Source of the DNA: a bacterium
GTDB lineage: Bacteria; UBA8248
Length of the DNA stretch: 64,000 nt
Assembly (NCBI GenBank): GCA_965207065.1
Contig: OZ242260.1
Location: 1,952,001 to 2,016,000 of the forward strand
Reading direction: 5' to 3'
Below are positions 1 to 15,713 of this stretch, piece by piece; within the stretch, counting starts at the first letter, position 1, and the number at the start of each line of letters is the position of its first letter. The notes beneath the pieces were generated by a model. It ran no database searches. It had not been told where the DNA came from and saw only the letters and a program-made list of their open reading frames with translations. The position numbers were made by a program, and so were the translations under genes.

Positions 1-1095
1 TAATAGATTACGAAGAAATAGTTCGTATTGCTCATCCTCGTCCTGGCTCGGCTCAACAGGCCCGAAATCATTTTGCCGGCCAAGAAACTCGTCTAACTCC
101 TCCTTTGAAACAACCGGAATCTTTACATGGCGTCCCCACTGCGACCGCGCTTCCATGTAACTCTCGCTATTTACCTGAATAGAAAGCGTTGTTGAATGAT
201 CTTCTTGAACATGAGCGGCATACCACTTCTGTAAGGCGTAACCTATGCTATCCACCTCGTAATAGTAAAAGCGGCCTGCGCCGCGCGCCTTCCACTCCGG
301 AGCCACCATTGATTTTCTGTCGTCATCAAAACTCACGTATCGTACGCGAGCCAAGCAGGTTTGATGATATCGGATTTCGTAATATCCCGCATGATTATTA
401 TCTCTGCGAATCTCTCCGCGCGTCCACTCCTCATTACGCGCCATGAACTCTTCCGCCTCAGTAACTGCTAAAGTGAATTCGGGGAATATCTTATGGTGCT
501 TGAACGGATTTACTCCTACCCTGTTACTCGGCACCCATGAATCAGTTTCGTTTAGGTAGAGCTTAATTCTGTCAAGTGGAGAGATATCCAGTCCGAATCG
601 CTCCCGCCACATTCGTTCAATTTCATGAGGCTGTGCAGCATCCGTTGCTGGAGTGTTGGTATCGCAGACGCGTGTGTAAATATGATGCGCACAAAGTTTC
701 TCATACCTTTCGACAAGGTAATATGGTTTGTGTGGTGTATCCTCAATTATCAACACATCCAGCAATGTTCCGTCTATTGTTATTTCCATCAGATGAAAGT
801 CCGGAAATCTCGACTGAAAAAATTTGCTCGCGTTGTCGCGAAAAAGACCTGCAATATTGGCTTGCGTCCTCCGTCCGGGGTCATTGCTTATCGTGTGTAG
901 GGAGAAATTCAAATCGTCAACTCCAAAAATCAGGAACCGACTACCTTTGTGTTTGGCATTGGCAAGGCATAGAATATCATGAATTAGATCCGCCTTGTTT
1001 GTGTGATGGCAGCTCTTGAAGTCCCAGTATGTCCCTTCAGAGCGACGAACAATGAGCGCCCTAATGTCTGCTAGTAGAGTATCGTTCCTGGTCAT
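1..1095 (-). CDS. Schlafen/AlbA_2-domain protein, runs off the left edge (not in ORF track)
   Basis: Hand translation from ATG at 1095 down to about 541: MTRNDTLLADIRALIVRRSEGTYWDFKSCHHTNKADLIHDILCLANAKHKGSRFLIFGVDD...KPYYL...IYTRVCDTNTP...EIERMWRERFGL. The E-x4-DFK / D-I-x-C-L-A-N / L-I-F-G-V-D pattern is typical of AlbA_2. The rest was not translated, but absence from the ORF track implies no stop before position 1. Confidence 0.8.
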   Translation of the reverse strand, partial: MTRNDTLLADIRALIVRRSEGTYWDFKSCHHTNKADLIHDILCLANAKHKGSRFLIFGVDDLNFSLHTISNDPGRRTQANIAGLFRDNASKFFQSRFPDFHLMEITIDGTLLDVLIIEDTPHKPYYLVERYEKLCAHHIYTRVCDTNTPATDAAQPHEIERMWRERFGLDISPLDRIKLYLNETDSWVPSNRVGVNPFKHHKIFPEFTLAVTEAEEFMARNEEWTRGEIRRDNNHAGYYEIRYHQTCLARVRYVSFDDDRKSMVAPEWKARGAGRFYYYEVDSIGYALQKWYAAHVQEDHSTTLSIQVNSESYMEARSQWGRHVKIPVVSKEELDEFLGRQNDFGPVEPSQDEDEQYELFLRNLL

Positions 1096-1346
1096 ATGCC
1101 TCTCTTCCGAGTTTGTGAATTTCTTCTTGTCCTCCGTCTTAGTTTTTTCTTCACCCTCGCTTCAAACGGTGTGCGCATTTTCTCGTATAGGGCGTTGATG
1201 TGCTCAACGCGCTTGCGCTCAGAGGCGATGCCGCTTCGGCGATAGAGTTTGTCCACGGTGCGGTCAAGAGTATGATGGGCCCGGCGCAGATCGGGTGGCA
1301 TGCAGTACAGCTCGTAGAGGCGGTCAAAGTTGCGTCTGGGTGCGCC
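1092..1346 (-). repeat. Degenerate copy of the 3' end of the MmeI-family gene (copy B)
   Basis: Encodes AHPDATL/..LYELYCMPPDLRRAHHTLDRTVDKLYRRSGIASERKRVEHINALYEKMRTPFEARVKKK, versus THPEATLADLYDPDFMPPNLRRAHQALDRAVDRLYRRGGFASERERVEHLFALYEKMRTPLEVRAKKK at the end of 3619..6405. One frameshift near 1322. Confidence 0.9.
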
Positions 1347-1495
1347 AGACCGTGATGTCAGGTGAAAACCTGCCCTTGTTTGGAAGGTTACTCGGAGATA
1401 AGCGGCATAGAACCACGGCGGGGTATGTCCAACTCGTCGACTCGCACCTTGCCGAAACCGCAGAGAAGGTGCGGGCGTTATCAACGAGACGATAA
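1346..1495 (+). pseudogene. C-terminal fragment of a tyrosine recombinase/phage integrase
   Basis: QTVMSGENLPLFGRLLGDKRHRTTAGYVQLVDSHLAETAEKV resembles the box II LLGH-x4-TT-x2-Y motif, with H changed to D. No N-terminal part. Confidence 0.7.
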
Positions 1496-2335
1496 ATTCT
1501 GAGCGGAATATTCCCCAATTGTCGCTCGCAAAGCACTCATAAACTCGCTGGCAACATTACAGTGATTTATGAGAGAAAAATCTTTCGACCTATTAGCTGG
1601 CAAATTAGCCAAAGTCCATTTTCTCAACAAACCTGAGCCGTGCGCTTCCGGTGTCCTAATGTCATCCACCATCCCGATCACATCACCCATTATTTTCAAA
1701 AATGGGTCTGGAAACGGGATAATTAAATTGCGATTGTCAATTTCTTTAGCCGCTTCCCTTTTTTCTGAATGGATAAGCCAAGTCCTAACGATATTCGTTA
1801 GACACTTTCGGAAATGCAACGAAATTTCAGGCCAGTCTCGGGCGTGCTTGAAAAAGTAAGACTTTCTGCTTTTTGCCTTGACAAATTTCTCATACCTTCG
1901 ACATTCGTAAAGCAGAAATAATACTCCCATGTATTTATCCCAAAATGCACGAATTCGGAACGACAAAGCCGATAAAGCATATAGAATATCCGTTTTCCCA
2001 GAGAATAGCTCGAAATCTTGGAGCACTGCCCCTGACGCAATCCGTCCTCTACTGTGCAGTTGATTATATATGCCGCCAGCTAAATTCACATCTTTCATCA
2101 TGAACAGGTAGGTCAACTCAAGATCGACACAGGCATTCAACAGCTTGCCGTTGATGCGATCATCGTCGCAGTGTATGCGGGAGTACTTGTAGACGTTGCG
2201 AATGTCGTCGCATAGGTTATATCCAGTAATAGTCGCCCCTCCGTATCGGCTAATACATGTCGCAAAGTCTTCTGCATCTTGAAGAGAAGTAATACGGAAT
2301 GGTTCTGGCTCTTGAAACACACCTTCTCCGATCAT
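1481..2335 (-). CDS. Hypothetical protein, putative HEPN-type (Cthe_2314-like) RNase
   Basis: 284 aa, low GC. Has an SFRIRAFWDKYMG helix and an R-x4-H motif (RTPEAH) near the C-terminus. Confidence 0.55.
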   Translation of the reverse strand: MIGEGVFQEPEPFRITSLQDAEDFATCISRYGGATITGYNLCDDIRNVYKYSRIHCDDDRINGKLLNACVDLELTYLFMMKDVNLAGGIYNQLHSRGRIASGAVLQDFELFSGKTDILYALSALSFRIRAFWDKYMGVLFLLYECRRYEKFVKAKSRKSYFFKHARDWPEISLHFRKCLTNIVRTWLIHSEKREAAKEIDNRNLIIPFPDPFLKIMGDVIGMVDDIRTPEAHGSGLLRKWTLANLPANRSKDFSLINHCNVASEFMSALRATIGEYSAQNLSSR

Positions 2336-2369
2336 GAGCGTATCGTCCTAGAAGTTGGCTTGCTTCTAG

Positions 2370-2540
2370 TCAGACGTACCGCTTTTTCCTCACTCCGGTT
2401 CCCAGCGACGTGTACATCTTCTCATAGGACGCGAACAAATGCTCCACGCGCTCGCGTTGGGAGGCTATACCGCCCTAGAAGTAAAGCGCGTCCACGGCGC
2501 GATCGAGGAACTTGTGGGCTGTGAGCTTTTCAGCCGGAGG
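2370..2540 (-). repeat. Degenerate copy of the 3' end of the MmeI-family gene (copy A)
   Basis: Translates as SPPAEKLTAHKFLDRAVDALYF*GGIASQRERVEHLFASYEKMYTSLGTGVRKKRYV*, clearly homologous to the last ~60 aa of 3619..6405. Has an internal TAG. Confidence 0.88.
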
Positions 2541-2544
2541 CGAT

Positions 2545-3574
2545 CTATGCAACTCTGAACAGCTTATAAATTTCCTGCCTCAATTTATCATCGCAATCAA
2601 ATTCCACCGACTTCAAAGATATCATGTAATCTACCTGTTCTTTGCTGCGAAACGGTTTGCGGCGTATTTCACGGACTTCTTCGGCGCTAAAGTACCGATG
2701 GAGGTAATCATACGGATTTTTCCCCTGCCCTATTTGCTTAACAAGAAAGTTGACCCATTGCGCAGTACCCGTGCGTCTCTTCAAATCTTCGATTTCAAAA
2801 AAATCTCTCTCCGCGGCTGTTACGTTTCGGGCAAATAGGTTCTCGATTTTTTCATATAAATCTTTCAAAACTTTGAAATGTTCCCCCTACAACTATAGGC
2901 AAATCTATACTTTCCCCCATCGAACGCTCGATATAAGCCTTCGATACGCTATTCCATCTCCCAAATTTCAGGTTTTCTTTGCCAATCTTCAAAGTGCCAG
3001 CCGTCATCCCGCCTCTCCATGATATTTGCCATTCCGGAACGAAGACAACCCCATGAGATAAATTATTTCTCAACTCCCTTATGAATACGGCAACATCACA
3101 ACCAAAACTTTCTGTTTTGATTTCCTCAATGCTGGCTCTCACATCATCAGGGCACTCTCGCTGAATATTATCAAGAGTCTGTTGCAGGCCAACCACCAAA
3201 GCGCAATACGCCATCATGTCCTTTTGCGCTGCGTGCCCAACGACATGGGCTACATGCGTTTCGAAATTAGTGTCCTTCGAAAAGGCTCCAAGGGCCGCAG
3301 CATGACGGGAAATATCAATATATGCTTGGTGAGCTTCCGAGTATTGCGCTTTCAAACCTTCCTTCAATCTATTCTTTTTCCAGTAGATATGATGGCGGAT
3401 CACGCTCGTTCGCTCTGGACCTATACGCTGGTTTATGGTGTTCCGAATTTCGTCACAGGTTGGGATATCGCCACGTTTCAGATATGAAATAACTTTGCGA
3501 TTTTCAACATCTTTTCGTTGGCGTTCCATCTCTGAAGATCTCTTGAAAAGCTCCCAATTATCCGGTTCTTTCAT
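2545..3574 (-). pseudogene. Putative HEPN-motif protein split by a frameshift (ORFs 2852..3574 and 2545..2868)
   Basis: R-x4-H motif RNNLSH. Removing one base from the C5 run at 2883-2887 (G5 on the coding strand) joins the two ORFs into one 342-aa frame (...IVVGEHFKVLKDLYEK...). Confidence 0.55.
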
Positions 3575-3618
3575 TATTACCTCACAATATCGTCGTCATG
3601 GATAATCAAGTTTTATTA

Positions 3619-6405
3619 TCACCCCCGCCTCCGCCGTCTCGGTTTTTTCTTCGCCCTCACTTCCAGCGGCGTGCGCATTTTCTCGTACAGGGCGAAGAGG
3701 TGCTCCACGCGCTCGCGTTCGGAGGCGAATCCGCCCCGGCGGTAGAGACGATCCACGGCGCGGTCGAGTGCCTGGTGGGCCCGGCGCAGATTGGGCGGCA
3801 TGAAGTCGGGGTCGTAGAGGTCGGCCAGCGTCGCTTCGGGGTGCGTCGCGCGCGCGTCCAGAACGGCCTGCGCGAGTGGATCCAGCTTCGAGAGGTCGGC
3901 GTCTCCTGGCGGCGTGGGGAAGGTGTTGTAGATGACACCGATTCCGTACTGGAAATCGCTCTTTAACCGCCCCCCAATGTGTCTGACCCATGCCATGTGC
4001 ATTGCAGAGGTCAGGAGTGCGAACTCCTGTAAATCAGCATTTGGTAAGACTCTTACTTTGTTGCTTGGAATCACAGGCGGTTCAAGCCAAGCAATAGGTA
4101 TATAATCTCTTCTTTCGGAGCTTACTTCGGGGATAACGAGAAACGGCGCAGTTGGGATAACCTCAACATTGTACCGCGCCGGGTAGTCAGCAACCTTAAG
4201 TGTGCTCTTCCGTTTGCTCTTCGCCCTGAAACTTTTGACAGCGCGCATTCGTTCTACAACTTTTGGCATGGCCTTGAGATCCGCTGGGCCGGCTTCTTGA
4301 AGAGCAAGAATCCAGCGTTCACCGCCTTGCAGATATTCGCGCGCGCCGACATACGGATGCATGAACTTATCTGCAGCCAGTTCTTCCGCGAGTAAGGCCG
4401 CGCGTTGGTCAGCACTGAAAATGTAATTCCCGTTGTCGATAGGTTGTGAGCCGCTCAATAGTGGAAGTAGGCCGTTAATTGGCCGACTCTCCTCCCGCAC
4501 CGTCAGATGCGGATCGGCGAGGCCGCCCGCGTCGAACAGGTAAGGCGAGAGGGCGGTGTGGCGGCTTTCCTCCGGTTCGCCGTTTATATCGGGATAGCTG
4601 AACAGGCGTTTTTCCGCCCGCGCCGCCTCCCGGGGGTCCAGGCCGATAATAACAACGTGCACGTGCGCCTTCCCGCGCGCGTCCGACCCCCATGCGAAGG
4701 TGCGGTGGGCGAAGGCAATCTCCAGCCTGCACCGCTCGAAGAGCAGAGGCCAAAGCTGCGCCGCCTGCTCACCCTGCGTAATCGAGTTGGTGGCGACGAA
4801 GCCGACCCGCGTCGCGCTCTTTTGGAGATACTCCCCCGCCCGGATGAACCACGCGGTCACGTAGTCGAGCGTTCCGCCGCTCTTGCCGAGATCGGCGATG
4901 CGGCGCACCTGCAAGCGCTGCTCGGCCGTCTGGAACTTGGCGCCCACGAATGGCGGATTGCCGAAAACATAGGAGCAATCCTCGGGCGGTAGAAGCGCCG
5001 CCCAGTCGGTCTCCAGCGCGTCGGCGCACAATATGTGCGGGGAAGTCGTAATGGGAATGCGGGTGTAGGTCTGGCCGAACTCCAGGCTCAGGCGGTTGTT
5101 CATGATGTGGTCCATCATCCAGAGCGCCGTCTCGGCGATGCGCGCCGGAAACTCGCCGAGTTCGATGCCGTAGAACTGATCCACGGTGATTTTCGAAAGC
5201 TCGGCCACGTCGAGTTCTTGCTGCGCCTCGTCGGCGCGCAGTTCGCGGATGACCTCCATCTCCAGTTCGCGCAACTCGCGATACGCGATGATGAGGAAGT
5301 TCCCGCATCCACAGGCCGGGTCGAAGAAATTCATCTCGCCGAGACGTCGCTGGAACGCTTCGAGTTCGGCGCGGCGGCGGCTGTCCCGGCGGGCTTTGAG
5401 CCGCCCAAACTCCTCGCGCAGATCGTCCAGGAAAAGCGGCTCGATGACTTTCAGGATGTTCTTCTCGGTGGTGTAGTGCGCCCCCTGCGCGCGGCGCTCT
5501 GCGGGATTCATGACCGATTGGAACAGCGCGCCGAAGATGGCGGGCGAGATGTTCGACCAGTCGAAGCGGCAGCATTCGAGCAGGGCGTTCCGCATGGCGG
5601 CGTTGAAGGAGGGAATGCGCAGGGAATCCTTGAACAAATCGCCGTTCACGTAAGGGAAGCGGGCGAGGTCCACATCCAGCGTGCTCTGGCGGCCGTTCTC
5701 CGGCGTGTCCAGCGCCTGAAACAGTTCGGCCAGCTTCGCCCCGGAGTCCGAGCCGTCCTCGCTCGTGCGCTCTTCGATGAAATCATAGAAAATATCGCGC
5801 GGCTCGAAGATGCCCGTGTCGTCCGCGAAGAGGCAGAAGACGACGCGCACCAGAAAGCGCTCGAGATCGTGCCCCTCGTAGCCCGCCTCCGCTAGGGCGT
5901 CGTGCAGGTTGCCCGCGAGTTCGGCGGCCTTGATGTTGGCGGGGTCCTGATCGCGGAACTCGCGGCGTTGCACGCCGAGAATGAAACCGAATTTCTCGAT
6001 ATTGGCGGGCAAATCGGCGAGGGTGAAGGAGGTGTGCGTATCCTCGTCCAGATTGCGTAGTTCAAATGTCTGGAAATCGCTCACGAGGATGTGTCCGGGC
6101 CGTTCTCTTTCGGGGAGGGCGTCGAAGTATTCCCCCGCCTGCCCGTAGGCTCGCTCCAGATCGCGGCCCTCGCTTTTCTGTTCGACCAGCAGGACGCGCG
6201 GCCAGAAGAGATCGATGTAGCCATGGCGGTTGTCGAGCAGTTCCACGCGCTCTTCATAGCGGGCGACGGAGCGGCGCTGGACGCCGAAGATATGGAAGAA
6301 ATCGTTATAATAACTCTGCGTCTCGCCCTTCTCGTACGCGGCGCCCGCCCAAGCGCGGGCGAAACTCGCCGCGCGCACGCGTATCTCGTTCCAGGATAGG
6401 CGCAA
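3619..6405 (-). CDS. Type IIL restriction-modification enzyme, MmeI family (fused nuclease, m6A methyltransferase, target recognition domain)
   Basis: 928 aa. N-terminal IDLFWP..LLVEQKS nuclease motif, GAHYT, FFDPACGCGNFL (SAM binding), GNPPF (catalytic), C-terminal ATLADLYDPDFMPPNLRRAH..LDRAVDRLY. Confidence 0.93.
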   Translation of the reverse strand: MRLSWNEIRVRAASFARAWAGAAYEKGETQSYYNDFFHIFGVQRRSVARYEERVELLDNRHGYIDLFWPRVLLVEQKSEGRDLERAYGQAGEYFDALPERERPGHILVSDFQTFELRNLDEDTHTSFTLADLPANIEKFGFILGVQRREFRDQDPANIKAAELAGNLHDALAEAGYEGHDLERFLVRVVFCLFADDTGIFEPRDIFYDFIEERTSEDGSDSGAKLAELFQALDTPENGRQSTLDVDLARFPYVNGDLFKDSLRIPSFNAAMRNALLECCRFDWSNISPAIFGALFQSVMNPAERRAQGAHYTTEKNILKVIEPLFLDDLREEFGRLKARRDSRRRAELEAFQRRLGEMNFFDPACGCGNFLIIAYRELRELEMEVIRELRADEAQQELDVAELSKITVDQFYGIELGEFPARIAETALWMMDHIMNNRLSLEFGQTYTRIPITTSPHILCADALETDWAALLPPEDCSYVFGNPPFVGAKFQTAEQRLQVRRIADLGKSGGTLDYVTAWFIRAGEYLQKSATRVGFVATNSITQGEQAAQLWPLLFERCRLEIAFAHRTFAWGSDARGKAHVHVVIIGLDPREAARAEKRLFSYPDINGEPEESRHTALSPYLFDAGGLADPHLTVREESRPINGLLPLLSGSQPIDNGNYIFSADQRAALLAEELAADKFMHPYVGAREYLQGGERWILALQEAGPADLKAMPKVVERMRAVKSFRAKSKRKSTLKVADYPARYNVEVIPTAPFLVIPEVSSERRDYIPIAWLEPPVIPSNKVRVLPNADLQEFALLTSAMHMAWVRHIGGRLKSDFQYGIGVIYNTFPTPPGDADLSKLDPLAQAVLDARATHPEATLADLYDPDFMPPNLRRAHQALDRAVDRLYRRGGFASERERVEHLFALYEKMRTPLEVRAKKKPRRRRRG

Positions 6406-6922
6406 TTGCGGACTCAGGCGGTGCCGCGCCGGGCGGTAGTAGGGGGCAAATTAAGGAGCAATACTTGTCTCGTGATGTTCATAGTGTAGGAATATCGCAC
6501 ATTTCGGAGCGTGACTCCTAGCCGGTAAAGGTTGCGTTCCGATTTCAATCACGGATCGTAAGTATAGGGCTCGCGTCTGCTTGGAAGATAAGTTATCGAT
6601 ATTTCTCCCGCCATTCCCGTTATTTATGCTTTCCGACAAACGGTTCGGATCCAGGCGCATGAGTAGGGGCATGCCGGCTTTTGCCTGAAAATTACCGCTC
6701 CATTTTCGGTATTATACATGATCGCACAGATGGAACAGGGGATAACATTCATGTGCCCTGGCATACGGATGGCTTACTTGCCAGAGTTCAAGAAAGGTCT
6801 CCCCATCATTAAAGGAGCTTGGGGCCGTATAGCTTCACCCAGGTGCGGAGTGCCAGTAGTCGATGTAGTAGTTTTGCCCCTTTTCCGTGTACGTGTTAGG
6901 CAGCGCGACGGAAGAGTTCTCC

Positions 6923-7245
6923 ATGACGCGTCTACGCGCCGCCGAATTTGCGGCCTGACTCTTGGCCTCTACGCTACAACTCGCCGGTACCTACGGGTGG
7001 CGGTCTCAACTGTGACGGCTGCCACCGGGAAACGACGACTGGCGGGTATCACTGTCACCGCGGCGGGAAGAGCGACAACGGGAAGACGTAGGGGCAGTGG
7101 ACTACTTGGTCGTAAGGTCACGTTTGTATGGGCTATTCTGGGGGGCACCGCGCAGCTACCGGCAGTTCGAACTCCCAGAAAGGGGCTACGGTTCACGCCG
7201 GTCCAGCAGGATCGCGAGGGCGCGTTTGTTGAGTGGAGGTGGTGA
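6923..7245 (+). pseudogene. Decayed small secreted protein with a short YHYH-type motif
   Basis: 6995-7058 reads GGGLNCDGCHRETTTGGYHCH. The signal-peptide-like start at 6923 carries a stop and a frameshift. Confidence 0.45.
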
Positions 7246-7907
7246 TGCTGCCCTACTATCTTGTCAAACTCTTCACCCACGAGGAGCATGCCGCGGCTTT
7301 CAGTTGCGGAGAGATTTACGCCCGAAAGCTGCGGTGTTTTCGCAAGGAGGAGTCTGAGGGTCGAGGGGACTAGGCTGAAGGCACGATAGTCAACCTCCAT
7401 CTGAAAGATCAGAAACTCACCCTTACCGCTATAACCCCAGAGGGTCGGAAAACGATAGATATAACCGACAAAGATATTGCGGCTCCTGTGACGATGGGAA
7501 GCGACGCTATTCTGGACCTTCATGTGTTCTGTATGGTCGGCCTTTATGGAAGCTCAGGATCAGAGAACACCCACCAAATCAATTTGCCTGAAAGGTGCTT
7601 CCGCGAATTTGGAAAGTACGCCGTAGTCATCCTTGGCGACCACGTTAAGGAGTTTATCAACAGGGTTCAGGTCGCCGCGAAGAGAGAGGGATACCAAGTC
7701 TCGTGTAACCGTGTGACGTACTACGATCCCACTAGTTTCGACGGGCTGATTCCGGAGGATCGGGCCCCTTTCAGCAAGTAAAAAAAGTTCGAGTATCAAC
7801 AGGAATTTCGGCTCGTATTCGATACGAAAAAACCGGGGACGCTCAAATTGAATGTCGGGGAACTAAGCGACATTTCGGGGGCGGCGAAAGTCGTGCTCAC
7901 CCGTTGA
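7245..7907 (+). pseudogene. Hypothetical protein pseudogene with two in-frame stops
   Basis: GGAGG RBS, then one 220-codon frame (MLPYYLVKLFTHEEHA...RGD*AEG...HVFCM...FGKYAVVI...PFSK*KKFEYQQEFRL) broken by TAG 7371-7373 and TAA 7779-7781. Confidence 0.6.
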
Positions 7908-8719
7908 AAAAGAAGTCGCCAAGGCCTTTACGGAAATCTGCCAGCGTTCGCCGGGCACTCCACGGAGCTTCGTCTTGTACGAATAACACGTCTCGTCCCA
8001 CTCCACCGCCACCGCGCTCTGTGTGTCATCCTTGAGAGTGACCACGATGGACGCCAGCTTTTATGGGAACAGAACGACCTCGCGGGTCAGTCCGAAATTC
8101 GTTACGGTTCCGACTAACCCTGGAATTTACCCGACAGCGCGCCCTCTTGTTTCCTGAAGTGGGACACGTAGTCGTCGCGCTTTCTCGAGTCGACCTTGTT
8201 GATCTCGACGATGTCGCGCTACGCGATTTCGGCAAGGGCTACGAAGGTTAGGTCGTTGTTGCAGTCGGCGCGCTGCAACCCAATTGCGCGAGGTGTGAAA
8301 AATCATCGAGAGAATCTTCGCTCAATTACCGTGCACCCGCCAAGTGTCAATGGACCCGGTCTATCGCGTACAGGCAGCCTACCGCCCCCGGCCTGATAAT
8401 TCCAGGATTCCCTGTAATTTGGGCTGGAGTACTAGCGGGACTCGCGCTAACATTTTATCGTATTTCAGAAACCAGGGAACTTGGCCTTGACCTTTTTGAG
8501 CAGTTAATGGACATGAATTCATACGGATTGGATGAACACCTTTCGATGATTGACAGACCGGCATTTCAATCGTGAGAAAACACTCACCGAGACAGAATAA
8601 GTTAAGAAAGGAGAGAGAAAATCAACTTCCAGAAACTGTTTCAGGCTCGCCGTAGACAGACCTGACCGCGCCGAGTCCTCATCAGACACGGTGAAGAGCT
8701 TACGGAGGGTTTTTGGTCA

Positions 8720-9511
8720 ATGGCTAACCGCAAGATCGAACAAAACAGAAAGCCGACTTCGCAACCGGAAGTGGTGGAGTTTATGAAACCCCGTTTCGCC
8801 GACTATGAACATAAATTACGATCCTTGCCGGCCGACCCCACTGAACGCAATGTCACTGGAGACGACTTCCTGCTGGCTCGTGAGGGCCCTTTGGAAGTGT
8901 TCTATGCCCCGTTGCACGGCGTCACTCCAGACGCGCAAATCGTCATCGTCGGCCTGACGCCCGGAAGGTCACAGATGCTTGCCGCTTTTCGGGAGGTCCG
9001 AAGACTGCTTCAAGATGGCTTGCGCCCTCCGCAACTGTTCTGCGAGGTCAGGCGCAGGATTGCCTTCGGAGGATCCATGCGCACCAATCTGATCCAGATG
9101 CTCGACCGGATAGGCGTTGCCGATCATCTGGGATTGGAAACCTGCGCCGATCTGTTCGGCAGCGCGTCGCGCTTGCTTCATTCTACGTCCGCGTTGCGTT
9201 ATCCCGTCTTTTTCAAGGGAAACAACTATCGGGGCGCACCGAAGATCGGGAACTCAAAGTTGCTGTCGAATATCGTCAGGAGCAATCTCCCGAGTACTCT
9301 GAAACGATGCCCGAACGCCCTGATAGTTCCCTTGGGCAGAGCCGTAGAAGAGGGGTTGCAAGTCGCCGGCGTCGTCGAGTCGTCGAAAATCCTCAAGGGG
9401 TTCCCGCACCCTTCGGGCGCCAACGGACATCGAATCAAACAGTTCAAATCCGAGTATGGAAGACTCCGGAGCGCCGTGAGCAAATGGACGCCATTGTCCA
9501 CGAGCTGTTGA
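8720..9511 (+). CDS. Uracil-DNA-glycosylase-fold family protein
   Basis: IVIVGLTPG (motif A-like), LIVPLG and FPHPSGANGH (motif B-like). GGAGG RBS upstream. Confidence 0.65.
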   Translation: MANRKIEQNRKPTSQPEVVEFMKPRFADYEHKLRSLPADPTERNVTGDDFLLAREGPLEVFYAPLHGVTPDAQIVIVGLTPGRSQMLAAFREVRRLLQDGLRPPQLFCEVRRRIAFGGSMRTNLIQMLDRIGVADHLGLETCADLFGSASRLLHSTSALRYPVFFKGNNYRGAPKIGNSKLLSNIVRSNLPSTLKRCPNALIVPLGRAVEEGLQVAGVVESSKILKGFPHPSGANGHRIKQFKSEYGRLRSAVSKWTPLSTSC

Positions 9512-9522
9512 GGACGCGTGTC

Positions 9523-9960
9523 CTACAGCTCTTCCGACTCGAAATAGTCTTCGTCTATCCGCTTTAACTCGTAAATGATTCGCGTACGCACGCCGATCCC
9601 ATACCGGACCATGAGGCGCGCCAACTCCTCACCGTCGACCAGAGCAATCCGCTTAAGGCTCAGAGCCACGTAATTTTTCGCGGCTTGCGTGAATCCGTAG
9701 GTGGTGACGAACACCCCCTTGGTCGTGCCCGCCGCGTCGATTGCGCCGGCGAAGTTGCGTAAATCGCCTTTTCCCACGGTGTTGCTGTCAGCATATTTCT
9801 TCGCCTTCAAGTAGACTTCATCCAGCCCGAGCGTGTCCTCCCGGATCTTGCCGTCGATTCCACTATCGCCTGAACGTCCAGTCACACGGCCCATCGCAAT
9901 CAGCAAGTCAACGACTACACGTTCAAGAAACGCCGGTGCGGCTGTGGTTCTGGGCATCTG
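9523..9960 (-). pseudogene. mrr: Mrr restriction endonuclease, catalytic-domain fragment (N-terminus missing)
   Basis: ERVVVDLLIAMG..GRSGDSGIDGKIREDTLGLDEVYLKAKKY...KGVFVTT...LVDGEELARLM...KRIDEDYFE. No Mrr_N domain, and the segment after LLIAMG is shortened. Confidence 0.8.
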
Positions 9961-10001
9961 CGGATCAGGATCGACAAAGTCCTTGAGCGAACCTGTCAGA
10001 T

Positions 10002-10077
10002 GAAGAACCGAGTGCGTCAATCGCGCACGCTCGGGTCTGTGGGGGGCGGGGCGCAGAAATGCTCCCGCCTACCCGGC
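10002..10077 (+). mobile_element. Group II intron 3' remnant (domains V and VI only)
   Basis: GAACCGAGTGCG-TCAAT-CGCGCACGCTCGGGTC folds as domain V with an AC bulge. It is followed by TGT and a domain VI-like hairpin GGGGGGCGGGG..GAAA..TCCCGCCT-A-CCC with a bulged A at 10071. Confidence 0.7.
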
Positions 10078-10490
10078 CCAATGGTTGTAACGGTTCGGCG
10101 GAGGGGTGATAACTTAGTCGATGCCGGAGACATTTGTAGGAATTTCGCGGTGTAGCCAGCTTCAGCTGGTGCTTTCCTGTTCCTCATCACCCCGCGACCG
10201 AACGAATACTACACCGGCGTTCGACAGTATCCCGCCAGGGTGCGCTGGGGTTATAATGAATCCGCTTTCGTTTTGATTACATTTATTATAATGAATTTGT
10301 AACTAGCTTATAAACAATAACTTAATTTTTATATTCTGGATATATCGATAAAATACGATAAATTCGCGGTGTTTTTCGGTAAATAAACGAAAAGAGAAAA
10401 GAGAGAGGGTGAATCTACATAACTCTAATTTTTACAATAAGTTGATAGAAATGATGTTCGCCGGGCACGGCTTTTTCCACGATATGGATC

Positions 10491-11495
10491 TCAGGCGGTT
10501 TTCTTGGGGTCGTTCACCGGATATTTGGGCTTCTTGCCGCTCAGGACGCGGGCGATGTCCTCCCCCGCCCACGTGGCGATGGCTTCGAGACATTCCTGCG
10601 TGGAACCCGCCATGTGCGGCGTGAGAATAAGGTTGGGCGCATCGAAGATGGCGCTTTCGGGATCCGGCGGTTCGCCTTCCAGCACGTCGAGGGCCGCACC
10701 TGCGATTTTGCCGTTTTTGAGCGCGCCCGCCAGAGCCGCCTCATCCACCAGCGGACCTCTCGCGGCATTTACGAGAAAAGCGGATTTTTTCATTCTCGAG
10801 ATCGCTCGCCTGTCGATCAGGTGATGGGTCTTGGGCGTGTGCGGCGCGTGAAGCGAGATGAAATCGGCCCGGCCCAGGAGAGTCTCGAATCGGGCGGGCC
10901 TGGCGCCGCGCGCTCTGATATTCTCGCTCTTGAGGCCCGGGTCATGGGCGAGAACCTTCATGCCCATCGCGAGCGCCATTTTCGTGAGCCGGCTCCCCAC
11001 CTGGCCTACCCCGATGAGCCCCAGCGTCTTGTCCTTGAGCTCCATTCCCGTGTGGCGCGCCTCGCCCCATACCCGCTCCGCTCCCACCCGGGAGGCCGCC
11101 TGGGGAATACGCCTGGCCAGGGAGAGGATCAGCCCCAGCGTCAGTTCGGCTACAGCGTTCGCGTTGGCTCCCGGTGTATTTGTAACGAGTACGCCGTGTT
11201 CCGTGCAGGCAGCCACGTCGACCTGGTCCACTCCTGCTCCATGCACGGCCACCACGCGCAGGTCCGGCAGCAGCGCGAGCAAAGAGGCGGTTATGTAGCC
11301 CGGACGCAGCAGAATCGCTTCCGCACCTCTCAGCTCCTTGGCGAAAGCGGCTTCTTCCGCATTGTCCAGGGGTCTGAAGGGCAGCGCCACGGCGCGGACG
11401 GGTGCGACGCCGGTCATGGCCTGTTTCACGGGCGCCATGGCGACCGGAAAATCGGATGTGGAGGTAATGGCGGCCCACCGTTTTTTTGATGGCAT
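10491..11495 (-). CDS. D-isomer-specific 2-hydroxyacid dehydrogenase (SerA-like)
   Basis: GAGVDQVD, GLIGVGQVG (NAD binding), NAARGPLVDE, LDVLEGEP, TPHMAG. True start uncertain. Confidence 0.9.
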   Translation of the reverse strand: MPSKKRWAAITSTSDFPVAMAPVKQAMTGVAPVRAVALPFRPLDNAEEAAFAKELRGAEAILLRPGYITASLLALLPDLRVVAVHGAGVDQVDVAACTEHGVLVTNTPGANANAVAELTLGLILSLARRIPQAASRVGAERVWGEARHTGMELKDKTLGLIGVGQVGSRLTKMALAMGMKVLAHDPGLKSENIRARGARPARFETLLGRADFISLHAPHTPKTHHLIDRRAISRMKKSAFLVNAARGPLVDEAALAGALKNGKIAGAALDVLEGEPPDPESAIFDAPNLILTPHMAGSTQECLEAIATWAGEDIARVLSGKKPKYPVNDPKKTA

Positions 11496-11503
11496 GGGAA
11501 GAA

Positions 11504-13165
11504 CTACATGTCGACAGCGGTGAAATCACCGTCGTAGTTGTATTCGGCTCTGGCTTTTTGAACGGAAAGCAGGCCCTCTTGCAGGTCGCGTTCGATGGAA
11601 TAGAAGGAGCGGTCCTTCGGGTCGCCATAACCGCCCCCGCTCGGCACTTCGAGCACAAGCCTGTCACTCTGGTTCATCACCCATTGACGTTTGGGGTTGA
11701 TGGGGCGCCCGTTCAGGGTCACCTTGCCGACGCGCCCGTTCTTCCCGCCGAACAACCCATAGGCGGGGTGCCGGGTTCGCTCGCTCATGAAGGTGAGGAG
11801 AATCGGCCCGTCGGAGAGTGATTTCACGATGACCTGCTGGCCGTTTCCACCGGCGTATTTTCCTGCGCCGCCGCTGTCTCTGATAGAAGCTTTTCTCTCC
11901 ACCAGCAAGGGCACGAGATGTTCGAGGATTTCGATGGGCGTGTTCGAGGTGTTCGAGGGGAAATCGAGACATACGCGTCCATCGTGCCTGTCCGTCGCGC
12001 CCTGTCCGCCATGGAGGAAGAAGTTGCCGGCGAAGTGCCTGTTTTCCTTTGTGATGCCCGCCGCGTTGATGGCCCACGTGGGGCTGCCGCTGGCCGCCTG
12101 GACGAGATTGGGCACTGCTTTGCAGAGCGCACCGAAAACGGCCGAAGGAATGAAGTGTCCCACCATGGAGCGGCCGTTCACGGGGGCCGGATAACGCGGA
12201 TTCAGGATGCTGCCCTCGGGCGCCGATACCGTCACGGGCCGGAAGTTGCCCTCGTTGTTGGGGATTTGAGGACAGAACAGGCATTTGAGCGAATAGGCGG
12301 AATAGGAATAGACATAACTCAAGACGGCGTTCAGGCCGCGGTCGACCTGCGGGGATGAGCCCGTATAGTCCACCAGAATGCTGCTGCCGCGAACCTTGAC
12401 CTCAACGCGGATGACGAGCGGCTCATCGTACCCGTCTGTGGATACCTGAAATCGGTATTCCCCATCTTCCACTTTCTTGATGGCCTCGCGCATCGCGTTT
12501 TCGGAGCGCTGGAAGATCGTGGTGGCCGGCGCATCGAGGTCGGCGAGTTTGTATTCTTCGAGCATCTCGCCGATGCGCTGGGCGGCGAGCCTGCCGGCGG
12601 ACATATGGGAGATCATATCTCCCTCCACCTGGTTCGGCACACGCACGTTTGTTCTGATGATTCTCAGGATATCCTCGTTGATTTTGCCCGCCGACATGTA
12701 CTTGCAGGGTGGAAGCTGGAGGCCTTCTTCGTAGATCTCGCGCACCTCGGGGGATCGCAGTTTTCCCCCCATGTCCGTTACCTGGGTGGTGATGCCGATA
12801 AGAGCGACCAGCTTCGATTTGTGGAACACCGGTGTGAGGGAAGTGAGATCCTGAAGATGGCCCGTTCCCATCCACGGGTCGTTCGTGAGTATGAGATCGC
12901 CGGGTTCAAGCGTTTCCTGCGGGTAAATCTTGAGAAGTTTTTTGGCCGTAATCGGCAACGCGCCCACGAAGCTGGGCATGGTGGACCTGGCCTGGGCGAT
13001 GGATTGACCGTTGGGATTCAGAATGATGACGGCGAAATTTCTCGCCTCGCGTATCGTGGTCGAAAAAGCGGTGCGGACGATCTCGGTGGCCGTTTCCTCG
13101 GCGATGGCGATGAAGCGGTTCCAGAGGACTTCCAAGGTAATTGAATCGATACCCTTGCGGGCCAT
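11504..13165 (-). CDS. Hydantoinase B/oxoprolinase family protein
   Basis: IVRTAFSTTIRE, NDPWMGTGHLQD, EIYEEGLQLPP, NTPIEILE, DSGGAGKYAGG, PSGGGYGDP. Confidence 0.92.
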   Translation of the reverse strand: MARKGIDSITLEVLWNRFIAIAEETATEIVRTAFSTTIREARNFAVIILNPNGQSIAQARSTMPSFVGALPITAKKLLKIYPQETLEPGDLILTNDPWMGTGHLQDLTSLTPVFHKSKLVALIGITTQVTDMGGKLRSPEVREIYEEGLQLPPCKYMSAGKINEDILRIIRTNVRVPNQVEGDMISHMSAGRLAAQRIGEMLEEYKLADLDAPATTIFQRSENAMREAIKKVEDGEYRFQVSTDGYDEPLVIRVEVKVRGSSILVDYTGSSPQVDRGLNAVLSYVYSYSAYSLKCLFCPQIPNNEGNFRPVTVSAPEGSILNPRYPAPVNGRSMVGHFIPSAVFGALCKAVPNLVQAASGSPTWAINAAGITKENRHFAGNFFLHGGQGATDRHDGRVCLDFPSNTSNTPIEILEHLVPLLVERKASIRDSGGAGKYAGGNGQQVIVKSLSDGPILLTFMSERTRHPAYGLFGGKNGRVGKVTLNGRPINPKRQWVMNQSDRLVLEVPSGGGYGDPKDRSFYSIERDLQEGLLSVQKARAEYNYDGDFTAVDM

Positions 13166-13178
13166 GTCTGCATCTCTC

Positions 13179-15278
13179 CTAGAGTTCGATGATCAGATTC
13201 TGGAATTTATCGACCTGGAAGTTCGAGCGAGGCCCGATGACAGTCGTCGTCATTTTCTCTTCCACCAACGCCGGCCCCTTGAACTTCTGTCCCGGCTTCA
13301 AAAGATAGCGATCGAAGATATTCACTTTTCGGAAACCCTTGTTCTCCGGCATGTAGATGCGACGGTTGCCCTTCAAGGCGGTTTTTACGTCTTTTTCGGG
13401 TAGGTTCGAGAAATCAAATCTCACGTTGGGTTCCGGCCCGATTCCGAAGATTCGCCAACTGAACACCTGAAGCGGCACTTCGTCTATGGCGCGTCCGTGG
13501 GCAGAGGCGTAATGCTCGCGATAGGTTTCGCTGATTTCTCCGAAATGGTTCGGCGTCAGTTTTCCGCTCGGGATGGGGATGGTGAGCGGGAAGCCCTGGC
13601 CCTCGAAGCTGATGTCCGCCATGCGCTGAATCCGGATTTCACGTTCCCTCACCCCGGCGGCGGTGAGGACTTCGCGAAGCCGTTTTTCGCGCCGGTTGAG
13701 CGTGTCGTTGAGCTTGGTGAGGTTCACGTCTTCGAGCGGCATCACCTGGCTGTCCACGGTGTCCACCTTGAATGGAACGGTATGGAGCCCCAGGCTGGAA
13801 GCCAAACCAGCGCCCGGTGGGCAGACGATACGCTTGAGCCCCACCTTGCGCGCAAGCCGGAACGCATGAACGGGACCTGCGCCGCCGGTGGCCATGAGGG
13901 TAAAGTTGCGGGGGTCTTTTCCGCGTTCGGAGAGCTTGATGCGCGCGGCGGCGGCCATGGTTTCATTTACCAGTTCATGGATTCCCCAGGCCGCCTGGAT
14001 CTCTTCGATCTTCATCGGCTCGGCGATTTTGGAGCGTATGGCTTCGGATGCCGCCTCGGAGAAAACGGGCATTTCGCCACCCAGGAAATAATCGGGATTG
14101 ATGTAGCCGAGAAGCAGGTTGGCGTCGGTCACCGTGGGCTCTTCTCCACCCAGTCCGTAGCAGGCGGGCCCGGGGGACGCCCCCTGGCTCTCGGGGCCGA
14201 CCTTGAGCAGGCCCAGGTCGTCGATTCGCGCGATGCTGCCTCCACCCGCGCCGACTTCGATCAGATCGATGCACGGCACCTGGATGGGCATTCCACTGCC
14301 CCTGGTAAAGCGTTTGACGCGCGCGATCTCGAATTGAACGGACAGATGGGGTTCGCCGTTTTCGATGATGCAGGATTTGGCGGTGGTCCCGCCCATGTCG
14401 AAAGCGATGAGGTTTTCGAATCCGCCGAGTTTCCCGAAATAGGCCGAAGAAAGCGCTCCTGCAGCGGGTCCTGACTCGAACATGCGTATGGGACTGCGTC
14501 CGGCGGATTGCGCCGTGGCGATGCCGCCGTTCGACAGCATGATATAGAGCGAGACGTTTTCGAGGTTGACCTCCAGGTCTTCGAGATATTTCGAAACAAT
14601 CGGTTGGATGTAGGCGTTGGCCACAGTGGTGGAAGTCCTCTCGTATTCTCTGATTTCCGGGCAAACCTGAGAGGAGAGGCTGAAGCTTACATCAGGGAAC
14701 GATTGCGCTATCGCTTCGCCGACTTCGGTCTCATGGGCTGGATTGGCGTATGAGTGCAAGAGGCAAACCGCTATGGATTCCGCACCTTTTTCCACGAGTT
14801 CCTGAATCGTTACCCTCACCTCCTGGGTGCTCAGAGGCTGGAGTATCTCCCCGGCCGCGGAAATCCGCTCGGTCAATTCGCGGCGAAAAGTTCCGGATAC
14901 CAGAGGTTCAGGAAATTCAGGCACGATGTCGTAGATGTCATATCTGGATTCACGGCCCATCAAGAGGATGTCGGCGAATCCCTTCGTGGCGAGAAGACCC
15001 GTGGCCGCGCCTTTCTTCTCGATGATCGCGTTGGTGGCGAGGGTGGTTGCATGAATCGCCTGGCCGAGATCGCGGAACCGCAGGCTTTCTTCATCGAGCA
15101 ACGTGCGCAAACCCGCGAGCGCGCCTATGGATGGGTCGTTCGGCGTTGTGAGATACTTGCCCACCGCGGTTTTTCCGTTCGATGGATTGTAAATCGCAAT
15201 GTCGGTGAACGTGCCGCCGATATCAATCGCAGCAACGATTCGTCTTCTGGATGTGTAAGATGAAGCGGATTTGGCCAT
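13179..15278 (-). CDS. Hydantoinase A/oxoprolinase family protein
   Basis: IDIGGTFTD, HATTLATNAIIE, EYERTSTT, ESGPAAG, DMGGTT, GAGGGSIA, PGPACYG. Confidence 0.93.
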   Translation of the reverse strand: MAKSASSYTSRRRIVAAIDIGGTFTDIAIYNPSNGKTAVGKYLTTPNDPSIGALAGLRTLLDEESLRFRDLGQAIHATTLATNAIIEKKGAATGLLATKGFADILLMGRESRYDIYDIVPEFPEPLVSGTFRRELTERISAAGEILQPLSTQEVRVTIQELVEKGAESIAVCLLHSYANPAHETEVGEAIAQSFPDVSFSLSSQVCPEIREYERTSTTVANAYIQPIVSKYLEDLEVNLENVSLYIMLSNGGIATAQSAGRSPIRMFESGPAAGALSSAYFGKLGGFENLIAFDMGGTTAKSCIIENGEPHLSVQFEIARVKRFTRGSGMPIQVPCIDLIEVGAGGGSIARIDDLGLLKVGPESQGASPGPACYGLGGEEPTVTDANLLLGYINPDYFLGGEMPVFSEAASEAIRSKIAEPMKIEEIQAAWGIHELVNETMAAAARIKLSERGKDPRNFTLMATGGAGPVHAFRLARKVGLKRIVCPPGAGLASSLGLHTVPFKVDTVDSQVMPLEDVNLTKLNDTLNRREKRLREVLTAAGVREREIRIQRMADISFEGQGFPLTIPIPSGKLTPNHFGEISETYREHYASAHGRAIDEVPLQVFSWRIFGIGPEPNVRFDFSNLPEKDVKTALKGNRRIYMPENKGFRKVNIFDRYLLKPGQKFKGPALVEEKMTTTVIGPRSNFQVDKFQNLIIEL

Positions 15279-15713
15279 TTCTAAGTTGTGGGAAAGCCTC
15301 TTGTGTGAGGATCAATAGATTTCGGCATTGTAAAATTAAGGTTAATTCTGTACACCTCAAATTCTATAAGCCAGACATAAGTATATGAAATCAGGCGCTT
15401 TGTCAATTCCTGGGAGGAGCAATGCTGCTAAAGATGTTGAAATTCAAAAGGTTACATAGATTTGCCGGACAACGGGTAAAAATGAAAATTATGAAACATT
15501 TTGATGGAATCATATTAACCTATTGATATCTTTATGGTTATTGAATGATAAACTCTCGTTTCGTCTCGTTTGGCCTAATTTTGAGAGGTGAAATACGTTG
15601 CATCACTGGGCAAACAATCATTATTTGCTTATAAAAGCCTGTCTTTCATACGATCAGATACGTGTCATAGGATCAGATACGTGAATTTGGTAAGGAGAGT
15701 GAGGTCTGAAGTG

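Follow-up and report, generated by a model that had tools for sequence, protein, structure and literature searches.

The subject of this report is a restriction-modification (R-M) locus at the left end of a 64,000-nucleotide stretch of bacterial DNA (GTDB lineage Bacteria; UBA8248; assembly GCA_965207065.1, contig OZ242260.1, positions 1,952,001 to 2,016,000 of the forward strand), referred to below as the window. At this locus an intact MmeI-family gene is followed by orphan copies of the MmeI 3' end (tails A, B, and C), each with its own downstream accessory, or cargo, gene, and we consider it probable that incoming alleles built the series by repeatedly displacing resident 3' ends together with the partner genes of those ends. 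The gene and all three tails lie on the minus strand, and along that strand the order is gene-cargo 1, tail A-cargo 2-integrase relic, tail B-cargo 3-integrase relic, tail C-cargo 4, and flank gene. A complete gene thus stands ahead of orphans in the same orientation, each of which opens with a piece of its conserved region. Every element named in a preliminary description of the window was present at or within a few bases of the place given there, and the tblastn search to the left of the window that it had proposed showed that the array continues with a second integrase fragment, tail C, and cargo 4. The genome that contains the window (G000; 4.48 Mb) was searched whole with tblastn and the MmeI_C model, and a comparison set of 100 relatives was used, and the window's own phylum was represented by 51 genomes. 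Throughout, G-numbers denote genomes, L-numbers loci, and X-numbers public sequencing runs.

The three tails were each recognized by tblastn, by MmeI_C, and at the DNA level. Tail A (2370..2544; MmeI amino acids (aa) ~870-921, with one in-frame TAG) was matched by tblastn at 2382-2537 (62% over 52 aa, E 6e-10) and by MmeI_C at 33.6 bits, and its DNA was 75% identical over 118 bp to the intact gene's own MmeI_C tail (~3670-3903, minus strand, part of 3619..6405). It starts 4 nt past the cargo-1 stop, the junction reading TAG ATCG CCTCC, as had been reported. Tail B (1092..1346; aa ~855-928, open frame) was confirmed at 1130-1361, with the tblastn match at 1161-1361 (61% over 67 aa; MmeI_C 50.3 bits; DNA 79% over 216 bp versus the gene's tail), and its stop overlaps the cargo-3 ATG (ATGA). 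Tail C lies left of the window (window -424..-208, minus strand, one in-frame TAG), where tblastn matched 209-388 nt from the edge (70% over 60 aa; MmeI_C 49 bits; DNA 75% over 217 bp versus the gene's tail and, for B versus C, 70% over 271 bp). The copies are thus diverged from the gene (75-79%) and from each other (70% for B versus C), and cargo genes start close behind the ends they follow, with cargo 1 beginning 44 nt past the MmeI stop; on both points the preliminary description was accurate. Besides the gene itself, tblastn of the 928-aa protein against the 4.48-Mb genome returned C-terminal pieces only, namely tails A, B, and C, relic tail D (genome 4118590-4118712), and a weak relic E (genome 1163108-1163188). 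Matches to MmeI_C above the curated cut-off were confined genome-wide to the gene and tails A, B, and C, with one further weak copy; four same-orientation copies thus fall inside 7 kb with zero others above the cut-off in 4.48 Mb, and the clustering is therefore more than chance.

MmeI-family enzymes are single polypeptides composed of an N-terminal nuclease, a helicase-like spacer, a gamma-class N6-adenine methyltransferase (MTase), a target-recognition domain (TRD), and a C-terminal domain; they cut ~20 nt from their site, methylate one strand, and carry a D-x9-E-x-K nuclease motif, an S-adenosylmethionine (SAM)-binding motif, and an NPPF/Y motif. By domain order and catalytic motifs, the predicted 928-aa product of 3619..6405 (minus strand) is a Type IIL/IIG R-M enzyme of this family. 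All five Pfam MmeI domains are ordered along it (MmeI_N 3e-36, MmeI_hel 4e-26, MmeI_Mtase 4e-85, MmeI_TRD 2e-62, MmeI_C 8e-27), the PADLOC model REase_MTase_IIG spans aa 2-912 at 1150.6 bits, and the motifs D65-x9-E75-Q-K77, D362-PACGCGNF, and G482-NPPF are legible in the translation. Across 11 MmeI homologues the D-x9-E-x-K, SAM-binding, and NPPF motifs were invariant or nearly so, and the protein was 47-88% identical to its homologues at the aa level.

Evidence that recombination has taken place inside a tail came from the separate genome of a related species, G013, whose proximal array consists of MmeI, cargo 1 (intact), tail A, cargo 2 (split), an integrase fragment, and tail B. The block shared by G000 and G013 extends over 5.3 kb, from window 6482 (77 nt 5' of the MmeI start) to 1151, at 81-85% nt identity except in the TRD region. 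In that region (window ~3950-5000, comprising the later MTase and the TRD) the two genes are 46-71% alike in 150-nt windows, versus 80-91% over the rest of the gene; this looks like a swapped target-recognition region, and the two enzymes hence probably have different recognition sequences. The homology stops inside tail B (window ~1151), beyond which G000 has cargo 3 and G013 has another gene, so that cargo does vary behind a tail copy, as the preliminary description had anticipated. It had also anticipated cargo homologues directly behind intact MmeI genes, and the gene after tail B in G013 is such a case: it is 75% and 72% identical at the aa level to the gene directly behind intact MmeI in two further species, G008 and G022, respectively. 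Furthermore, starting within the tail and continuing through the cargo, the G013 DNA is colinear with the operons of G008 (78% over 1,147 bp) and G022 (77% over 1,165 bp), and the G013 tail-plus-cargo unit therefore constitutes the remains of an MmeI-plus-partner operon. Tail B of G013 is itself chimeric. Its 5' part sides with G000 tail B at 35 informative sites to 1 versus the G008 gene, while its 3' part sides with the G008 gene by 7 to 4 within the tail and by 59 to 18 when the sequence beyond is included. Within the tail the contrast was significant (Fisher p=3.8e-5), and none of 5000 permutations reached the observed maximum chi-square. The breakpoint falls at codons ~901-903, in the most conserved stretch (window ~1199-1206). 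Thus, one upstream block is connected, at a point within the tail, to two different natural MmeI ends that carry separate cargo, and the chimeric tail and the block boundary together demonstrate recombination inside the tail.

Orphan tails were not confined to these two genomes. Reading of the loci of short-frame MmeI_C matches verified 11 orphan tails in 6 of the 51 phylum genomes (G000, G013, G049, G006, G018, and G029), and tblastn added a few more, including one in G008, where the order is gene, cargo, and tail fragment; two further short-frame matches were rejected as orphans, one being a frameshifted full-length gene and the other a gene split by an insertion sequence. The 11 verified tails compare with 4 short-frame MmeI_N matches (these 4 unexamined), a bias toward the 3' end. 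In G049 an insertion sequence interrupts an Mrr gene, which is followed by three tails in the same orientation, and the stop of the second (t2), whose frame is open, overlaps the start of a 260-aa gene. In G018 (L021 3491-7675) an Eco57I-like Type IIG gene of 1,394 aa is followed 14 nt past its stop by an MmeI tail with 91% aa identity to that of the window gene, from which it seems that one R-M gene took another's place while the old 3' end stayed. In G029 a tail stands behind an Mrr gene. Tail D of G000 has a similar setting, a full Mrr-type gene, 43 nt, tail D, and a convergent gene of the QHQ family described below (genome 4117958-4119738; L002 9958-11738), with aconitase-family genes nearby; in some relatives the intact MmeI gene also lies close to aconitase-family genes. 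A replacement of MmeI by Mrr at tail D was considered and rejected: because an Mrr-like gene is the usual upstream neighbour, the tails of G000 (D) and G029 are read as MmeI-body deletions, and the place of tail D may be an older chromosomal MmeI locus from which the body was deleted.

A wider survey covered 80 loci with MmeI homologues (47-81% aa identity) from a species-representative genome collection, of which 4 were in own-phylum relatives (G004, G012, G007, and G049) and the remainder in other phyla; the MmeI 3' end was held by 73 of the 80, and 63 had at least 5 kb downstream. At 55 of the 80 loci a co-oriented open reading frame (ORF) of at least 80 aa starts no more than 400 nt behind MmeI, in some cases overlapping the MmeI stop by 4 nt. 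The 29 downstream ORFs of at least 140 aa were mutually unrelated apart from one near-identical pair, and the families seen included DUF2971, AlbA_2+HATPase_c_4, AAA_13/AAA_21, GmrSD_N, Mrr_cat, and SIR2_2, along with many ORFs without a family and some housekeeping neighbours. The slot behind MmeI homologues is therefore hypervariable across phyla, and the families of cargo 3 (AlbA_2) and cargo 4 (DUF2971) do occur behind intact MmeI elsewhere. Whole-genome searches of 42 survey genomes gave further short-frame MmeI_C matches, and the seven places read comprised five damaged genes (with frameshifts, internal deletions, or 5' truncations), a short orphan tail covering aa 802-921, and a more distant, essentially full-length family member. 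In G133, from another phylum, all four relics keep the 3' part (aa 353-926, 524-925, 574-928, and 802-921). The homologues of L040-L119 include genes 65-81% identical at the aa level in metagenome-assembled genomes labelled as many phyla, several with sponge-related names. Cross-phylum homologues are as close as those within the window's genus, which suggests recent transfer between co-resident organisms.

Under the displacement reading, the region would be the growth zone of a defence island. MmeI-type genes of this family usually have a variable accessory gene behind them, in many cases only a few bases away and in many cases a candidate defence gene. Incoming DNA with a second MmeI allele and the accessory gene belonging to it would recombine with the resident locus. 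The left exchange would be anchored in conserved MmeI sequence or in the conserved leader upstream of the gene (6406..6526, minus strand), of which 6410-6526 matches by blastn the region 5' of MmeI in L006 and L007. On the right side, founding events would have been illegitimate joins within the 3' part of the resident gene, that is, one-sided (homology-facilitated) illegitimate recombination, leaving founding joins and 5'-truncated relics; in later events a donor-borne orphan tail would recombine homologously with the resident gene tail to give a chimera. Ordinary double crossover would suffice if the left exchange were upstream of the right exchange. Instead of being lost, the resident 3' end would then move one place outwards together with its accessory gene, the newest unit would adjoin the gene, and repeats of this sequence of events would generate the order seen in the window. 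The tails (two with stop codons) are relics, and their worth would lie in serving as homology stretches for adding, and possibly dropping or swapping, accessory genes. The preliminary description had proposed that the conserved C-terminus is a recombination landing pad at which an incoming allele replaces the gene end, brings its own downstream gene, and pushes the old tail and cargo outwards. This interpretation is supported: recombination inside the tail was demonstrated, both kinds of result that it had named as support were obtained, and no outcome that it had listed as refuting was observed. However, the first joins (integrase aa 332 to MmeI aa ~855; cargo-1 stop to MmeI aa ~870) are illegitimate and non-homologous, and although displacement of tail and cargo is supported, the incoming unit seems to have been a whole allele with its cargo, not a gene end only.

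The strongest competitor, which we nevertheless regard as unlikely, is decay in place: complete tandem modules of MmeI and partner would have lost their older bodies by separate deletions of their own, and the tails, playing no part in recombination, would survive either as harmless 5'-truncated pieces or through a requirement of the downstream gene for the final 100-200 bp (promoter or translational coupling). Such decay would account for the 5' truncation of the relics and for the body deletions. Tandem full-length copies are indeed known (L049 holds two full-length MmeI genes 6 kb apart), and at L157 of G133 (5716-10460) a full-length frameshifted MmeI is followed after ~270 nt by a second copy that lacks the first 352 codons and retains aa 353-926; the other three 5'-truncated copies of G133 are located elsewhere in its genome. 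Body deletions that keep both neighbours also occur, as in the Mrr-plus-tail arrangements of G000 (tail D) and G029, and tails whose stop overlaps a cargo start (tail B of G000 and t2 of G049) keep open frames, while the gapped tails A and C carry TAG. However, the chimera in G013 tail B and the block boundary inside the tail record exchange within a tail, and the integrase junction shared by tails B and C, described next, is incompatible with two independent deletions. In addition, a promoter and terminator scan of 1-6600 found no sigma-70-like match on the minus (coding) strand in any tail, with counts no higher than in shuffles, although this is a weak test.

Tails B and C each abut an integrase remnant, as does relic E. 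The first fragment (1346..1495, plus strand) was identified by tblastn as the C-terminus of a P4-like tyrosine integrase, from aa 332 to the end, where the preliminary description had listed an integrase fragment; it was 74% identical to the intact 388-aa integrase of L031 and 81% identical to the same fragment in G013. This integrase is intact in two other genomes; the window retains no more than the final ~57 aa, in convergent orientation to cargo 2 and head to head with tail B. The second fragment lies at window -202..-128. The integrase/MmeI junction is identical in B, C, and G013-B without an insertion or deletion, although the sequences are only 70% alike; being the same to the base, it stems from one old join that spread and not from three events. 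A microhomology of 7 of 9 nt between the joined sequences, read off the alignments, fits illegitimate recombination, and these features indicate that a single old illegitimate join was later spread with different cargo on either side.

These same remnants might also suggest site-specific integration, in which an element with a P4-like integrase would target MmeI 3' ends and bring a replacement end, the tails being duplications of old attachment sites and the integrase pieces the remains of elements. In keeping with this, besides the fragments abutting tails B and C and relic E, MmeI junctions cluster at aa 855-860 and 869/870, boundaries of fragments of this integrase family cluster at aa 329-335 with at least four different partners, and a contig form without the array exists. 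Even so, we hold this explanation to be decidedly improbable. The join lies inside the integrase frame, and neither an N-terminal part of the integrase nor a remnant of an MmeI body was found near the array; no integrase accompanies tail A or the orphans of L018, L020, L021, and L023; and at 16 other loci where this integrase or fragments of it occur, no MmeI piece is present. Alignments of the tails, which are 70-79% alike, showed no identical core (which old elements could have lost), the B/C junction offers only the 7-of-9-nt microhomology, and no intact element was found. The chance that the tail repeats were wrongly chained in assembly is negligible: although short-read contigs of other runs break inside tails (that of X4 ends in tail B), copies only 70-79% alike are too diverged for collapse or chaining, a 7,698-bp Logan short-read contig from run X1, which may be the window's source sample, spans cargo 4 through the 3' part of MmeI with 0 differences, three contigs of a second sample, X3, cover window 500-4073 without a difference, and the proximal 5.3 kb has the same order in G013.

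Several observations weigh against serial displacement and have to be set beside the evidence for it. A chimera was demonstrated for a single tail, and the arrays of G000 and G013 go back to one inheritance and so are not two cases. None of the 80 survey loci has an extra tail within 10 kb, and tail arrays beside an intact gene are local, having been found in this phylum only; nor were homologues of cargo 1, 2, 3, or 4 found at any of the 80 loci. Distant relatives of cargo 2 (24-39% identity) occupy 33 metagenome loci, none with an MmeI piece nearby, a close homologue of cargo 3 in G022 (63%) has no tail or MmeI alongside, and the two plasmid homologues of cargo 3 that were examined stand alone, with MmeI not adjoining. 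Clustering of the joins is predicted by neither plain homologous nor random illegitimate recombination: independent joins fall at MmeI aa 855-860 with four partners (the integrase, an IS3-like orfA start, an antitoxin-like gene end, and the sequence after Mrr) and, at one identical ATCGCC boundary, at aa 869/870 with two partners. Matching places occur in L001, L012, L018, L020, L021, and L023; in the window the clusters map to ~3825-3845 (codons 855-860, within ~15 nt) and ~3795-3800 (codons 869-870), with an alternating CG tract just upstream, and the clustering beside it might mean that a break-prone or enzyme-targeted site starts the process. Two joints in contigs of public runs count in favour of displacement, but they were placed at 80% likeness and may derive from other organisms in the same samples. 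In the first (runs X1, X3, and X9), tail A passes in register to the MmeI tail with 25 diverged letters between, which may reflect a form with cargo 2 directly behind MmeI and without cargo 1; in the second (X1, X4, and X9), the MmeI stop is followed 5 letters on by the flank beyond cargo 4, which may reflect a form without the array. In X4, a sample from another host species, a contig carries cargo 4-tail C-cargo 3 at ~92% identity; the gaps in cover over cargo 2-tail A-cargo 1 in X4 and over most of cargo 4 in X3 are unusable as absence.

The four genes behind the gene and its tails all differ, two being R-x4-H proteins without a known family and the others AlbA_2/PDC-S50 and DUF2971/PDC-S31 proteins. 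Cargo 1 (2545..3574, minus strand) was located where the preliminary description had placed it but is not one ORF in G000, where it is frameshifted at window 2852-2880 into ORFs 2852-3574 and 2545-2868; in G013 it is a single ORF (L012 11199-12317, of which the 347-aa part 11199-12242 was taken as the protein), 84-86% identical. It carries the motif R-N-N-L-S-H (RNNLSH), of the R-x4-H type and the only likeness to HEPN seen. No Pfam or PADLOC match was obtained for cargo 1, with only stray weak Pfam matches at E<=5, and an Atlas search returned hypothetical-protein clusters only. Cargo 2 (1481..2335, minus strand) is an intact 284-aa protein in G000 but is split into two ORFs in G013 (L012 10534-10541), so that in each of the two genomes one of the two MmeI-nearest cargo genes is broken.

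Members of the HEPN superfamily share an all-helical fold with a conserved R-x4-6-H motif. Cargo 2 is possibly HEPN-like, to judge from its AlphaFold2 (AF2) model, which is all-helical (pLDDT 85.6), and from the invariant residues R227-x2-E230-x-H232 (R227 and H232 unchanged in 37 sequences). A wide VIA structure search returned HEPN entries at Z 6.2-7.5, no better than unrelated helical bundles; an Atlas lead was HEPN_Cthe2314 in 19% of one cluster; and Foldseek against PDB gave nothing at E<=0.001. No Pfam family is recorded for any of the 92 homologues, whose few available source names read 'hypothetical protein', and cargo 2 had no Pfam match even at E<=5, no PADLOC match, and no match among the plasmids searched. 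Cargo 3 (1..1095, minus strand, running 38 nt past the left edge) encodes a 377-aa AlbA_2 (Schlafen-type) protein (Pfam AlbA_2 8.9e-10; PADLOC candidate PDC-S50 8.2e-77). Cargo 4, of 478 aa, lies left of the window (window -1883..-447) and matched DUF2971 in Pfam (4.3e-8) and candidate PDC-S31 in PADLOC (1.9e-18), with no homologue among the 100 relatives. At E<=5, Pfam added nothing but stray weak matches for the cargo genes other than cargo 2. Cargo 2, 3, and 4 remain open reading frames in G000 and, to the extent that they are expressed, may still add to defence.

Beyond cargo 4 the array ends at a relic of the convergent QHQ flank gene (window -2104..-1943; L001 15896-16057). The QHQ family consists of small proteins, encoded in multiple copies, that have a hydrophobic stretch along with QHxETM-like repeats (L002 9958-10521, L001 15896-16057, and at least 12 other places in G000). 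In several relatives a QHQ gene is convergent downstream of MmeI with only a variable cargo region between, or downstream of other candidate defence genes. On the upstream side, a fragment of an Mrr-type restriction endonuclease comprising the catalytic domain only (9523..10020, minus strand; Pfam Mrr_cat 3.3e-26) sits 3 kb from the window MmeI gene. This fragment is 76-79% identical in nt sequence to the sequence immediately 5' of MmeI in L080 and L098, where the Mrr-like sequence stops exactly where MmeI begins, and 72% identical to the Mrr gene adjoining tail D. Fragments of a type IV coupling protein occur further left of the array, outside the window, and housekeeping genes start right of window ~10.4 kb; given the coupling-protein and Mrr fragments and the housekeeping genes beyond, the locus is therefore viewed as a decayed mobile or defence region. 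At the border between island and housekeeping genes, window 9958-10390 holds repeats of 35-200 nt that are 80-97% alike and recur at about twenty other genome places, and at L001 9174-10249 a tyrosinase gene lies in two overlapping ORFs, apparently frameshifted.

Integrase and recombinase remnants were also frequent elsewhere. C-terminal fragments of P4-like integrases are common in the phylum (among 130 matches listed, 19 of 101 genomes, many of the best in short frames), and L024-L039 are loci holding this integrase, of the same family as window 1346-1495, or fragments of it. Adjacent pairs of tyrosine recombinases, once perhaps three, occur at no fewer than eight places in G000, for example at 14086-16372, 70391-72677, 898268-900570, 1131224-1133535, 3128302-3130817, and 4432562-4434848, and look like a repeated mobile element with tandem recombinases. 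When the first 39 loci were scanned for tRNAs, two turned up, one at L007 that did not adjoin a tail and one at L036 that did not adjoin an integrase fragment. A model of the Mx8 or SSV type, with attP inside the integrase gene, was not adopted, as neither the other integrase half nor the displaced MmeI body is present and the ends of fragments elsewhere range over aa 252-335.

A displacement model was reportedly put forward for rhs orphans by Jackson and colleagues in 2009. Orphan modules of rhs and contact-dependent inhibition (CDI) loci, with their 'C-terminal displacement', are treated by Poole et al. (2011; PMC3150448). The shared features are a full-length gene followed by co-oriented orphans, each made up of a conserved-region piece at the start and variable sequence after it, along with a partner gene of its own, a place next to the gene for the unit taken to be newest, and recombination in the conserved piece that joins different downstream units, as in G013 tail B. 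Unlike those modules, the variable unit here is a separate gene (AlbA_2, DUF2971, or R-x4-H protein) and not a toxic C-terminal tip with an immunity gene, the conserved piece is a true enzyme C-terminus whose tail runs to the natural MmeI stop, the gene encodes an R-M enzyme and not a delivered toxin, and the founding joins are illegitimate. By this comparison the array works like rhs/CDI orphan arrays without being a member of that class, because its variable unit is a separate gene behind an R-M enzyme, not a toxin tip plus immunity gene.

Other known systems share single features with the array. Phage 21 and e14 integrate at icd, into the 3' end of a protein gene, and bring a replacement end; direct repeats of a gene 3' end around foreign genes and an integrase relic at the far side are common to both cases, whereas here there is no intact integrase, no identical core was observed, the join lies inside the integrase gene, and unit A is without an integrase. 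Defence-island hotspots are bounded by conserved genes, and defence genes are found embedded in Type I R-M or BREX loci. A comparable fixed slot, from the MmeI stop to the convergent flank gene, holds 0 to 4 candidate defence genes across related genomes, but here the left flank is itself a defence gene and its 3' end is duplicated at each step, leaving a readable record. Exchange of TRDs or domains at conserved flanks in Type I and Type IIG systems, and hsdS shufflons, likewise involve homologous recombination in conserved R-M stretches, and a TRD swap between G000 and G013 is seen here too; in those systems specificity changes within the gene, often through inverted repeats and a recombinase, whereas here direct repeats gather complete downstream genes. 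When R-M units insert with a long duplication of the target, as reportedly described by Nobusato, Furuta, and Kobayashi, long direct repeats likewise come to lie around inserted genes at R-M loci, but those are fresh target duplicates, whereas the present repeats are 70-79% alike and come from different alleles. Integrons comprise an IntI integrase, attI, and cassette-borne attC hairpins; the only type of integrase piece in the array is P4-like. A full-text literature search, at the level of listings and abstracts, found no description of orphan 3'-end arrays of MmeI-type or other Type II R-M genes, in line with the statement in the preliminary description that no such architecture was known to its author for Type IIL systems.

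The question of how defence islands expand and swap genes is open, and at this locus the successive states can still be read, since every displaced 3' end remains joined to its former partner gene. If serial displacement is correct, forms with fewer units and chimeric tails are to be expected, and a defence gene's own conserved end would be the anchor by which further defence genes are collected. In that case the position immediately after MmeI-type genes, where many genes lack a known family, would be a good hunting place for new defence genes. A broader proposal, which we advance tentatively and with some doubt, is that the conserved MmeI 3' end is a portable homology arm: an allele of the form 'gene - accessory gene - orphan tail' could place its accessory gene behind any resident MmeI by double crossover, and arrays could shed or re-expose units by tail-to-tail recombination, which would make them a self-extending, switchable, rhs-like defence store that spreads between co-resident symbionts from different phyla.

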